From: a virus
Taxonomy: Duplodnaviria > Heunggongvirae > Uroviricota > Caudoviricetes
DNA: 42,776 nt
IMG/VR virus record: IMGVR_UViG_2874945390_000010
Coordinates: 1-42,776 of that record
Reading direction: 5' to 3' (one strand)
The position numbers are program-made. Shown here piece by piece: positions 33,601-39,600 of this stretch (position 1 is its first letter; each line of letters starts with the position of its first letter).

Positions 33601-36600
33601 TTTACGCCATGGACCATAGTGTTTTGATCTTCTTGATCTGTATCTTTATCTGTATCTTTATCTGTCGTGACTCGTCGTGACATGTGCGTGACATTTCGTG
33701 ACGCGCCGTGACAATCGCCATTTTGTTCCCGCTTTCTTTCCCTCTCTCGCTGCGCCCTCTTGCACTCTGCAGGAGATTTTGCGGTTTGCGAAATATTGCC
33801 GTTGTCCTCTTTAAGCACCTGGCGTTTTTCCCATCCAGTGATTAAATCACCATCAAGTACCCGCCCCTGCATCGTCTGCAAAATTGAATCAATTACCTCT
33901 TCTGTCACGTCGAGCGCACTTGCCAAATCTTCTGTCGTGACATCAATGTGACCTCGCGTGACATTTCGTGACGCGCTCACCAGGAGGTGGATATACACTG
34001 CCATCACTGTTGCAATTGGCTGCCCTGACACCCTGGCAATTGTTCGCCACTTAGGGTCATTTGGCATGTCATGCCATAATCTGAGCCAGGCGTTAGCCAT
34101 ACTCACCTCTTTTGATACCGAATCTTTTTACTCACAAATTGCCGGAAGTGATCCGGTATGAATATTGCGAGTCAATGCACAGCCACAATATTTCCTGCAG
34201 GGCCACCACGATTCATCTGGTTGAAACCAGCGATCGCCACTGCGACAAAATCATCAGCGTCTCTCACCAGTCGTTCCCGCGTCTCCACTAGTTCCCGAAA
34301 ATAGGCTGAGCTATGACTGCGCATTCGGGCCACCAGCAGAGGTGGCATTGCTTTTTCGATAGCTGGTAACAACGCCTGAATTTTTTTAACCGCATCAGGG
34401 GTGTCTTTCTCCACCCAGCGGAAAATTTTCTGAGTATTGCGAGCCAGGGCTTCCGGATGGCTGTCGTCATACAGTTCCGGGAACGTCATTCCCAGCTCGA
34501 AATACGCTTTGGTAATTTTCGCAGCCGGTACTTTTTCGCCGTCCGGATGCGCCCAGGCATTCATCGCCATGCGGATGTGTTCATGCTTGATTTTCATGAA
34601 TCAACTCCCATCAGCTTTTTCGTAGTAGTTTTATTCCTGCCAATAGTTAAAATTGCATCGGCAGAAAATAATCCGTTTGATGCAAGAGCGATTTTTTCAG
34701 CGTAATTTGTTTCGCCGGTATATTCTGTGCGAGGCAATTTTCCGTTATCCATCCATTTATAGATTGCTCTTTGGCTGACACCACAAACGTCGGCCACAAC
34801 AGCAACGCGAACAGTTTTGATTACATCTTCAAGTGTTTTCTGGTTCATATCACCCTCACAATGTGAACTTTGAGCACACGCCATAACAGAACTGACAGTA
34901 CATTCAAGAGCGAATATCATTGAACTTATGGTTCATGAAGATAAAGCGCGTAAAGAGTTCGCCAGTAGGCTTGCGCTAGCCTGTGAAAACGCTGGTTATG
35001 AACAACATGGAAGGCAGGCAGAAATTGCCCGTCGAATGAAATTAACACCAAAAGCGGTTAGCAAATGGTTTAATGGCGAAACAATTCCTCGCCGGGAGAA
35101 ATTAAGGGAATTAGCAACACTAATAGGAACAACACCAACCTATCTTTTGGGAGAGGATACAGAAGAAAGTGGACAGGTACGTTTCTATCAGGAGTTAAAT
35201 CCAAGACAAAAAATCATCATTGACCTTCTGGACGAGCTCCCTGACAGTGAGACAGATGAACTTTTAAAAACTCTTGAAGAGAAAAAACAGAAGTACAATG
35301 CAATTTACGAAGAGTTAGCACGAAAGAAAAAACAAAAAGCCTCTTAAACCAGCATAAATCCGGTAGCGCCTTCCTCCGGGTTTGTGCTTCACTTTATCCC
35401 ATCTCATTTTTTTACACACAAAATGTACTAAAAGCACCTTACAACAATGAACGCAAAGTACATTATATACCTGCCACCCACCCCGCCCCACAGAATGCAG
35501 GGCAATACTTCGAGTTACCAGGCAGTGGTCAGGAGTTAAGTAGCCAGCCCGAGGCGTAAGAACATGACGGCAGGGTTCAACTTTAATAACTATGCAGCAG
35601 GTTTTTGTTCCGCTACCCCGGCGTTAAGGGGAAATGAGGTCAGCATGGATACTATCGATCTTGGCAACAACGAATCTCTGGTGTACGGCGTGTTTCCCAA
35701 CCAGGACGGCACCTTCACCGCAATGACGTATACCAAAAGCAAAACGTTTAAAACCGAATCTGGAGCGCGTCGCTGGCTGAAAAGAAATTCAGGTGGGTGA
35801 TATGGATTTCGACACAATCATGGAAAAGGCTTACGAAGAATACTTCGAAGGCCTTGCCGAAGGCGAAGAAGCTCTCAGCTTCAGCGAATTTAAACAGGCG
35901 CTTTCCAGTTCGGCAAAATCTAACGGCTGATAAGCGAAACAGCACCGCGAGGAATCAGCGTGCAGAAACGAGAACCCGTCATCATCGCGCCAGACTATAC
36001 CGATGATGAACTTTATGAGTGGATGCGCCAGAAAATTAATGCAGCGCAGGATCTGAAATGGGCTAATGAAGCCAGGGCTAAGCAGGCTGAAAATCTGTCC
36101 GCTCTGGAGCAGGATATCACCAATCTGGAAAAAGCAGCGGCATTAAGCATTGCCAGAATGATTACATACCCGCGTTAGTAGCTAATCAACAAAGCTAAGG
36201 TTAGTAATTAAGGAGTTCTCCACGGGTGAGGTGGAGTGCGTGCGCCGGACACGGGTGAGCATCCGGCACTGACAGTTTACTGAAAGGATATTTCCCTGAA
36301 AAGTCAGACCATAACGCGAAAGCGCACGGCGAGGTAGCTGGTTCATAGATAGCCTGTCGTTAAATTTTCGTCGACCGTGCGCTTCCGGTTGTGGCAATCC
36401 GCGAAATGGCGCGGCGGTAAGTATGGCGGGGTTATTCCTTCCCCCGTTGAGGACACCGGGTTGTCAGGTTGACCATACGCTTAAGTGACAACCCCGCTGC
36501 AACGCCCTCTGTTATCAATTTTCTGGTGACGTTTGGCGGTATCAGTTTTACTCCGTGACTGCTCTGCCGCCCTTTTTAAAGTGAATTTTGTGATGCGGTG

Positions 36601-39600
36601 AATGCGGCTAAGCGCACGCGGAACAGTTAAAACCAAAAACAGTGTTATGGGTGGATTCTCTGTATCCGGCGTTAATTGTTAACTGGTTAACGTCACCTGG
36701 AGGCACCAGGCACCGCATCACAAAACTCATTGTTGAGGGCGCGATAATGAAAACGTTATTACCAAACGTTAATACGTCTGAAGGTTGTTTTGAAATTGGT
36801 GTCACTATCAGTAATCCTGTATTTACTGAAGAGGCCATTAACAAAAGAAAACACGAACGGGAGTTATTAAATAAAGTATGCATTGTTTCAATGCTGGCCC
36901 GTTTACGTCTGATGCCAAAAGGATGTGCACAATGAATCCAGTATTTGCACTTATTCTGACGGTTTTTCTTGTTTCCGGAGAGCCAGTTGATATTGCAGTC
37001 AGTGTTCACAGAACAATGCAGGAATGTATGGCAGCAGCAACCGAACAGAAAATTCCAGGCAACTGTTATCCGGTCGATAAAGTTATTCACCAGGATAATA
37101 ACGAAATCCCGGCAGGATTTTAAAACAGCACCGTAATAAATATCCAGTTTCATTCTTATATGTCAGCAATGGCAGAGATTTGTTCACCCTTAAATCTGTG
37201 ATGAGGTTTATCAATAATGAGCACTGATAAAGAAGAATTTGGGTAATGACTCCAACTTACTGATAGTGTTTTATGTTCAGATAATGCCCGATGACCTTGT
37301 CATGCAGCTCCACCGATTTTGAGAACGACAGTGACTTCCGTCCCAGCCTTGCCAGATGTTGTCTCAGATTCAGATTATGTCGCTCAATGCGCTGAGTGTA
37401 ACGCTTGCTGATAACGTGCAGCTTTCCCTTCAGGCGTGATTCATACAGCGGCCAGCCATCCGTCATCCATACCACGACCTCAAAGGCCGACAGCAGGCTC
37501 AGAAGACGCTCCAGTGTGGCCAGAGTGCGTTCACCGAAGACGTGCGCCACAACCGTCCTCCGTATCCTGTCATACCGTCCTCCGTATCCTGTCATACGCG
37601 TAAAACAGCCAGCGCTGACGTGATTTAGCACCGACGTAGCCCCAATGTTCGTCCATTTCAGCGCAGACAATCACATCACTGCCCGGTTGTATGCGCGAGG
37701 TTACCGACTGCGGCCTGAGTTTTTTAAGTGACGTAAAACCGTGTTGAGGCCAACGCCCATAATGCGTGCACTGGCGCGACATCCGACGCCATTCATGGCC
37801 ATATCAATGATTTTCTGGTGCGTACCGGGCTGAGAGGCGGTGTAAGTGAACTGTAGTTGCCATGTTTTACGGCAATGAGAGCAGAGATAGCGCTGATGTC
37901 CGGCAGTGCTTTTGCCGTTACGCACCACGCCTTCAGTAGCGGAGCAGGAAGGACATCTGATGGAAATGGAAGCCACGCAAGCACCTTAAAATCACCATTA
38001 TACACTAAATCAGTAAGTTGGCAGCATTACCAGAATTTGCACTATATTGCGAAGCAAAAAATGTCAAAGTAAGAAAACGCCTAGGAATTAAAGGTGGTTT
38101 TTACTGGACTACAGCAAAAAAATTATCTGTTGCAATCTCCCGCTGCATTACCGCAATGGATGACAACGATTATGATGAAGACGACTTTAAAAAACCCGTC
38201 CGCGTCAATTTGCCCGTTGTTGACGACCTTCCGCCAGAAGGCGTGTTTGATACTGAATTCTGCAACCGCTATGAAAAAGGCGGGAAAGATGGCATCACAA
38301 TGACATTTATCGGCCCTTCCCCCTCTGTTCAGGACAAATCAGCCAGCACTGATAATACCAACATCAACGGCGAAGACATGACTGAGATTGAGGAGAGCAT
38401 GCTTCTACCTGTCTCCGGTCAGGAACTGCCCATTCGTTGGCTTGCTCAACACGGCAGCGAAAAACCAGTAACGCACGTTTCACGCGACGAACTCCAGGCA
38501 TTACACATTGCACGGGCTGAAGAACTACCGGCTGTTACTGCCCTGGCTATTTCGCATAAAACCAGTCTACTCGACTCGCTGGAGATTCGCGACCTCCACA
38601 AACTGGTTCGTGACACTGACAAAGTTTTCCCTAATCCTGGTAATTCAGACCTGGGACTAATAACTGCTTTTTTCGAAGCATACCTGGACGCTGACTACAC
38701 TGATCGGGGTCTGCTGACAAAAGAGTGGATGAAAGGAAATCGTGTTTCACGCATCACCCGCACGGCTTCCGGTGCTAATGCTGGCGGTGGGAACAAAACC
38801 GATCGCAATCCGAATTTAGTACACACCCTCGACACACTGGATGTGGAGATTGCAGCAGCCACACTTCCGATGGATTTTAATATTTATGAAATTCCGGGCA
38901 GCGTTTATCGTCGCGCAAAAGAAGTAGTCCTGAAAAAAGAAAGTCCGTTCAAAGAATGGTCCGCAGCACTTCGTGCAACCCCGGGTATTCTGGACTATTC
39001 CCGCGCCGCTATTTTTGCACTTATCCGAAGCGCACCCCCTGAATTTTATCACTACCCGGGACGCCTTCAGGGGTATATCAACGCCTATTTGACGGAAACT
39101 GATCACGAGAACCCCAGCAAGGAAACTCTCACAGCTGCCCGGCATACGCCGGAAAAAGATATCCTGGAAAAAATTAACCGCGAGGTGGTTACTGAGCGTG
39201 AAACAGAAGAAGAAAAACCACAACCATCTGACGCAATGGCAGGTGAACAGGCAACAACTGAAACAATGGAACCGGATACAACTGAACATTGCCAGAACGC
39301 GCAGTCGCTGGATGCTCAGTCGCAGGTGAGTTCCGCTAACCAAGTAAAAGTCACCGCTGACGAAGTAAACAAAATTATGCAGGCAGCCAATATCAGCCAG
39401 CCTGACGCCGATAAGTTACTTGCTGTATCGCGTGGTGAATTTGTTGAGGGGATTAGCGACCCTAATGATCCGAAATGGGTCAAGGGGATCCAGACTCGCG
39501 ATTCTGTGAACCAGAACCAGCATGAATCGGAACGGAACGACCAAAAAGCGGAACAAAACAGCCCAAATGCGTTACAAAACGAGCCAGAAACGAAACAATC

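Follow-up and report, generated by a model that had tools for sequence, protein, structure and literature searches.

What does the segment at positions 36520-37123 of the IMG/VR virus record IMGVR_UViG_2874945390_000010 (Caudoviricetes) encode, and does it amount to a complete cell-division-inhibition module, as a sequence-only reading of this DNA had proposed on finding there the small RNA (sRNA) DicF, the gene dicB and a ydfD-like gene? The window, that is the whole stretch of 42,776 nucleotides (nt) analysed here, corresponds to one lambdoid prophage, Qin-like, integrated at tRNA-Ser next to mtfA. The dicBF genes have been under study since the late 1980s, and the cassette found here is an ordinary, already known one. 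The region is very probably the canonical dicBF operon, an accessory operon on the early-left (pL) side of a Qin-like lambdoid prophage, whose function would follow from the experiments made in Escherichia coli K-12. We favour this reading because the matches to Rfam and Pfam models are full-length, gene order is syntenic with K-12, the alleles are common, the unit recurs in phages and chromosomes, and the RNA stems are conserved.

The operon extends over 35645-37123 in the order ydfA-ydfB-ydfC-dicF-dicB-ydfD, and the trio initially flagged is its 3', distal half. Its parts, together with the structured RNA segments considered below, are the following:

35645-35800, plus strand: ydfA (DUF1391, Pfam match of 97.4 bits), first gene of the operon
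35802-35930, plus strand: ydfB, 42 amino acids (aa), identical to K-12 YdfB
35960-36178, plus strand: ydfC, 72 aa, identical to K-12 YdfC apart from the start codon
36309-36394, plus strand: long hairpin in the ydfC-dicF spacer (free energy dG -37.4, z-score -3.25, 0 of 200 shuffles as good)
36520-36572, plus strand: DicF sRNA, 53 nt (Rfam RF00039), including a terminator stem at 36535-36571 and followed by a U-run at 36573-36577
36574-36738, plus strand: structured dicF-dicB spacer (fold dG -65.7, z -4.68)
36747-36935, plus strand: dicB, 62 aa (Pfam PF05358)
36932-37123, plus strand: ydfD, 63 aa, lysis protein (PF07358/DUF1482), overlapping the dicB stop as ATGA

The identity of the sRNA is clear. 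A cmscan search of the whole window gives an RF00039 match at 36521-36572 (plus strand) with 76.7 bits for a gathering score of 48 (E=2.4e-15), covering the model over its full length (positions 1-52 of 52), and direct comparison with the Qin region of K-12 MG1655 shows 53/53 bases identical to b1574, the flanks from -20 to +20 being likewise identical. The start at 36520 given by the sequence-only reading is exactly the K-12-annotated 5' end, and the terminator that it had recognised is recovered as a hairpin (36535-36571) followed by UUUUU, with a dG of -15.9 and a z of -2.3. The neighbours of DicF are ydfC and dicB, within a prophage operon under repressor control. In K-12, compensatory mutagenesis has established that the 3' region of DicF pairs with the ftsZ ribosome-binding site, and compensatory mutations likewise that its 5' end pairs with xylR (PMC5069750). 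Since the sequence equals that of K-12 at every position, the 3' residues that pair with ftsZ are unchanged, and the claim of ftsZ pairing made here rests on this identity and on the published mutagenesis.

The two protein-coding genes of the trio are equally well assigned. DicB matches PF05358 with 132.1 bits (cutoff 27), its residues 1-62 aligning to positions 1-62 of the profile, and dicB is free of frameshift, stop or truncation. Compared with K-12, the protein bears three substitutions (D29E, Q36H and I44V), its residues 1-28 being identical; the N-terminal ~14 residues, including L5, are needed for activity and for MinC binding (PMC4967827), and all three substitutions fall outside this critical part. 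Positions 36 and 44 show natural variation, the exact allele occurs on at least 1000 public contigs, and the protein is likely to be functional, judging from its sequence. YdfD matches PF07358/DUF1482 with 87.9 bits (cutoff 25) and possesses both termini over its 63 aa as well as the conserved cysteines C32 and C45; ydfD is intact, with seven substitutions relative to K-12, including residues 3, 4, 6 and 8 and L63F. Its exact allele is also found on at least 1000 public contigs, and its ATG overlaps the dicB TGA, so that the overlapping ydfD-like gene predicted downstream of dicB is indeed there, ending, as had been predicted, exactly at the stop codon at 37123. An antisense open reading frame (ORF) of 181 aa on the minus strand (36608-37153) is unsupported and was disregarded.

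The interpretation that accompanied the initial observation, in which DicF acts on ftsZ translation and DicB on division through MinC, is supported by these comparisons, neither a change at the ftsZ-pairing positions nor an inactivating change in dicB having been found. The description as a complete cell-division-inhibition module holds in one respect, all of its parts being intact, and needs amending in another, as YdfD is no division inhibitor but a lysis protein, which targets IspG and whose effect is masked by DicB (PMC8835842), and as the unit is the distal part of a larger operon. Furthermore, DicB blocks ManYZ-dependent phage DNA entry (PMC6832061), so that inhibition of division is just one side of what is known.

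How closely does the whole operon follow its K-12 counterpart? The Qin dicBF operon of MG1655 (ydfABC-dicF-dicB-ydfDE, b1571-b1577) has the same gene order and spacing, with 92-100% nucleotide identity per segment from ydfA to ydfD, a ydfC-dicF spacer of 340 nt compared with 341 in the window, a dicF-dicB spacer of 174 nt in both, and the same ATGA overlap between dicB and ydfD. The upstream genes ydfA, ydfB and ydfC are all intact: YdfA differs from K-12 by 3 aa (94.2% nucleotide identity), and the start codon of ydfC at 35960 is GTG, as against ATG in both K-12 and phage Tritos. The two prophages part company on either side of the operon. The intergenic region between the repressor gene and ydfA is of 166 nt in Qin and 297 nt in the window (46% identity); Qin has DicA and Rem, where the window has a repressor only 29% identical to DicA and no Rem homologue that could be found; and downstream of ydfD, K-12 shows ydfE and an IS2 remnant instead of the full-length exonuclease gene, interrupted by IS1, of the window.

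A closer relative is phage Tritos (OV696610), 96.6% identical to the window over 3.1 kb, which shares its CI, Cro and YdaT neighbours and the order ydfABC-DicF-dicB-ydfD-exonuclease-xis-int, and in which DicF is annotated. Tritos differs by the last base of DicF, by a K-12-allele DicB and by an uninterrupted exonuclease gene. The related temperate phages vB_EcoS-813R8 and mEp460 are grouped with Tritos as having near early-left regions. A more distant likeness is found with lambda kil, a small toxic product of a repressor-controlled lambdoid early-left (pL) operon that blocks FtsZ ring assembly on induction (PMC3961180); sequence and mechanism are unrelated, Kil inhibiting FtsZ assembly in a ZipA-dependent manner (PMC3961180) where DicB acts via MinC, and lambda is devoid of a DicF-type sRNA.

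The cassette is far from rare. Many E. coli chromosomes contain the stretch 36180-37241 (1.06 kb) at 100% identity, far beyond what chance would give, under the annotation dicB, DUF1482 (ydfD) and exonuclease, and 4747 of 5426 complete E. coli genomes (87%) match it, at a median of two places per genome, as do sixty phage records, including isolated temperate phages. An exact scan of IMG/VR with the 20-nt DicF core retrieved at least 120 stretches. Among the matches listed, the DicF of the window is the commonest of 13 variants (72/126 loci), 108 of the 112 viral contigs with enough flank have both dicB and ydfD following DicF within 1.2 kb, the dicB start stands at the same offset from DicF in 96 of them, and DicB identity goes down to 55% among the viral-contig loci.

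The RNA signals known to shape DicF in K-12 also have their counterparts here. In K-12, DicF is not transcribed from a dedicated promoter: cleavage by RNase III sets the 5' end of a species of 190 nt and cleavage by RNase E that of the 53-nt form, while the 3' end is given by the terminator, or by RNase III in a 72-nt form (PMC10448788, PMC5069750). Counting 190 nt upstream of the DicF 3' end, the length of the published species (PMC10448788), leads to position ~36383, which falls within the 3' arm of the hairpin 36309-36394 and would be the counterpart of the 5' end that RNase III makes in this precursor. Only this local hairpin stands out, the fold of the whole ydfC-dicF spacer not being significant (z -1.64). 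On the other side, the dicF-dicB spacer forms a 26-bp long-range stem (5' arm ~36574-36600, 3' arm ~36711-36738) enclosing invariant hairpins, and position ~36591, reached by counting 72 nt from where DicF begins and corresponding to the published RNase III site of the 72-nt species (PMC5069750), lies in its 5' arm. Two wobble pairs of the K-12 stem become G-C and C-G in the window. When 31 spacer variants are compared, pairing of the stem holds in 97.4% of cells, and the exchanges seen include C-G/U-G/U-A and G-C/G-U. Covariation is weak, both sides changing in 1 of 26 long-stem pairs and 3 of 58 pairs overall, mostly by wobble transitions. Because the variants are closely similar and the structure was derived from one of the 31, the conservation of the stem is supportive without being proof.

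The same alignment offers a further observation. The 3' half of the dicF-dicB spacer (36665-36738; columns 114-168 of alignment A1), including the hairpins CGTTAATTGTTAACTGGTTAACG and CCTGGAGGCACCAGG, is invariant or nearly so among the 31 cassette variants; in several of them, unrelated sequence stands in place of the adjoining segment (~36632-36664). DicB drifts to 55% aa identity across the variants while this 3' half stays almost invariant. Could the spacer be more than an RNase III site? The part at ~36665-36738, with its GTTAAC-palindrome and CCUGG hairpins enclosed by the 26-bp stem, could uncouple the toxic DicB from DicF, or could be a protein-binding site; that it is an additional regulatory RNA element gating dicB and ydfD is rather unlikely. 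A separate point is the wiring of this copy to a non-DicA repressor, with no Rem homologue found in the window.

That wiring raises the question of what controls the operon in this prophage. The upstream region comprises the following features:

34594-34848, minus strand: helix-turn-helix regulator in the Cro/DicC position, divergent from the repressor gene (weak Pfam HTH_17 match)
34897-34904, plus strand: third copy of AGTACATT, at the promoter before the repressor gene, next to the divergent promoters
34928-35347, plus strand: repressor in the CI/DicA position, 139 aa (Pfam HTH_3, 1.8e-9, only)
35422-35429, minus strand, and 35457-35464, plus strand: inverted AGTACATT 8-mers, a candidate operator pair 27 nt apart between the repressor gene and ydfA

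The repressor, in which Pfam finds no peptidase domain, aligns with K-12 DicA over 112 aa at just 29% identity (E=5e-15) but matches the Tritos CI at 139/139 residues. It is of another immunity type, DicA-like in position and domain layout and expected to act as DicA does, and is not an ortholog of DicA, the P22 C2-like repressor that controls dicBp; the dicBF cassette is thus attached here to a different immunity module. The divergent gene, a coding sequence of 255 nt, is called 'helix-turn-helix transcriptional regulator' in a 99.6%-identical relative and 'Cro' in Tritos. A promoter-like CTGACA-17-TATCAT, found by a consensus scan, ends 7 nt before the repressor ATG, in a layout resembling a near-leaderless PRM-type arrangement.

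As regards operators, AGTACATT has only three matches in the window, all flanking the repressor gene. A count of 3 over the whole window is not significant (reached in 7 of 100 shuffles), and the candidacy of the motif is due to its clustering at the repressor gene and not to its number; a repeat finder gave nothing more convincing as an operator motif. The copies may be regarded as candidate operator half-sites of a Tritos-type immunity system, and the operon promoter would be placed among them.

On the basis of work in K-12 (PMC10448788, PMC5069750, PMC6832061, PMC8835842, PMC4967827), the operon may be expected to function as follows. The CI-type repressor (34928-35347), bound to its operators, would keep it silent. 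Derepression would give a polycistronic RNA of ~1.1-1.65 kb starting upstream of ydfA, to be cut by RNase III in the hairpin of the ydfC-dicF spacer and trimmed by RNase E to the 53-nt 5' end, the 3' end of DicF being formed by the intrinsic terminator, or by RNase III in the downstream stem. Bound to Hfq, DicF would block FtsZ synthesis by base-pairing to the ribosome-binding site of ftsZ through its 3' half, and repress xylR through its 5' end. Read-through RNA would allow the synthesis of DicB, which would bind MinC and bring it to the septum via ZipA, so dismantling Z rings, and which would also prevent ManYZ-dependent phage DNA entry. YdfD, translationally coupled to dicB, would inhibit IspG and lyse dividing cells, an effect masked by DicB.

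Beyond the operon, the host element is a decaying lambdoid prophage of the CDT-I (cytolethal distending toxin) type, of which the following features may be mentioned:

1-573, minus strand: cdtC, its stop flush with the left edge of the window
570-1391, minus strand: cdtB
1388-2215, minus strand: cdtA; the three genes form the cdt operon at the left end
2631-2829, minus strand: Rfam match IS009
8111-11519, minus strand: tail-tip gene J, in three reading frames, that is with two frameshifts
20168-21925, minus strand: large terminase subunit gene, whose codon 97, E in an intact 585-aa relative, is an in-frame stop
24784-25179 and 25330-25758, minus strand: two neighbouring ORFs with a TolA C-terminal domain, between the lysis cassette and the STnc100 sRNA/tRNA region
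25869-26059, minus strand: Rfam match STnc100
26223-26295, minus strand: Rfam match tRNA
29585-29755, minus strand: Rfam match sok
30383-31414, plus strand: DDE_3/HTH transposase, 343 aa, between hok/sok (29345-29755) and the DUF977/replication genes
37217-37241 and 38032-40456: exonuclease gene (~813 aa) split by IS1, with Exonuc_VIII N-terminal and Rv2179c-like 3'-5' exoribonuclease domains
37242-38031, minus strand: IS1, 790 bp, with IS1 ends and an 8-bp target duplication AGAATTTG by comparison with the empty site in a relative

The IS1 copy breaks the exonuclease reading frame at codon 9, 118 bp past the end of ydfD, and marks the 3' boundary of the module without being part of it. This insertion is found in no complete E. 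coli genome, nor does any such genome cover 80% or more of the right half of the window. The insB gene of the IS1 contains a perfect 22-bp tandem duplication (37552-37597) which should frameshift the transposase. The three frames of J cover aa 1-649, 648-788 and 790-1165 relative to the J of phage cdtI. The transposase at 30383-31414, which we take to be IS630-like, sits where a relative has AbiH-type defence genes. The IS009 match is inside a tail-fibre assembly gene region, and the sok antisense RNA is paired with a hokD-like toxin gene (29432-29587). The cdt operon is 97-99% identical to E. coli type I cdt and 97.2% to that of phage cdtI, and the prophage combines a toxin acting on the eukaryotic cell cycle with an inhibitor of bacterial division. 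The reference CDT-I phage is built on another backbone, from which dicB is absent, so that the linkage of cdt with dicBF is to be seen as mosaic and not as a conserved pairing.

Several points weigh against reading this region as a working dicBF operon. The duplex predicted by RNAduplex between DicF and the K-12 ftsZ leader (-38.5 kcal/mol, ribosome-binding site included) is not significant alone, 78 of 1000 shuffled DicF sequences doing as well, and for this reason it is not used as evidence. Upstream of ydfA, no sigma-70 match reaches 9/12 in the consensus scan, and the best operon promoter read by hand, CTTACA-17-CATTAT at 35438-35466, scores 8/12 only and overlaps a AGTACATT site. No homologue of the K-12 antirepressor Rem was found in the window by tblastn (best E=0.45), blastn showing the Qin segment that carries rem to be replaced. 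In DicB, D29E replaces a residue found in 98 of 98 viral-contig alleles, and YdfD ends in F63, whereas in K-12 an L63A mutation, like the delta-N1 and delta-C1 deletions, weakens lysis (PMC8835842), making the potency of the F63 allele uncertain. F63 is present in 8 of 88 viral YdfD alleles. As for D29E, the site is conserved but the exchange itself is conservative, and the reservation is a minor one given the wide distribution of this DicB allele.

What, then, is the cassette for? A first alternative, which we regard as a serious possibility while leaning somewhat against it, is that the cassette is kept mainly for host protection and physiology, expression at a low level or in a subpopulation leading to the exclusion of ManYZ-dependent phages by DicB and to the action of DicF on xylR, pykA and manX, the division block being an overexpression phenotype. 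In K-12, lambda resistance of about 100-fold depends on DicB and MinC (PMC6832061), DicF has additional targets (PMC5069750), and the operon switches spontaneously in a subpopulation (PMC10448788); moreover, the prophage has suffered at least four disabling mutations and an insertion of IS630 type, and the cassette within it is intact; the presence of the cassette in 87% of complete E. coli genomes points the same way. However, this explanation hardly competes with that of a canonical dicBF operon, as it involves the same parts and the same molecular mechanism, and viable phages, where the phage is served, carry the cassette too. Nor does its intactness say much on selection: with ~5 lesions per 40 kb, a 1.6-kb operon would by our estimate escape by chance in ~80% of cases.

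A second alternative, that the module is a silent relic, intact in sequence but never expressed, or weakened in its proteins (DicB D29E, YdfD L63F) in a dying prophage, is distinctly unlikely. It draws on the defective state of the prophage, on the missing strong promoter match upstream of ydfA and Rem homologue, on the otherwise invariant D29 of DicB and on the weakening of K-12 YdfD by L63A (PMC8835842), but it has to contend with a repressor and immunity region that is intact and identical to that of a phage, with exact DicB and YdfD alleles spread over at least 1000 contigs each, with a DicF identical to the functional K-12 RNA, and with an operon devoid of frameshifts or stops, though ydfC starts with GTG. 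Finally, that DicF should be an sRNA gene apart, transcribed from a promoter of its own, instead of a processing product of the operon is most improbable: the 341-nt non-coding spacer upstream could hold a promoter, and an internal one was proposed by an older study, as cited in PMC10448788, but the consensus scan found no plus-strand site between 35348 and 36746, and the ydfC-dicF spacer is 98.5% identical to K-12.

Taken together, the canonical dicBF operon has little weight as a discovery and is useful as an annotation, since it marks the early-left operon and the immunity region of the prophage. Here the cassette travels on a prophage that bears the CDT-I toxin genes and an immunity region of the Tritos type. 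Its intactness amid broken terminase, tail-tip and exonuclease genes, without proving selection, fits cryptic prophages that keep genes affecting their host. It also flags a toxic cassette under repressor control, from which filamentation or lysis would be expected if the repressor were removed.

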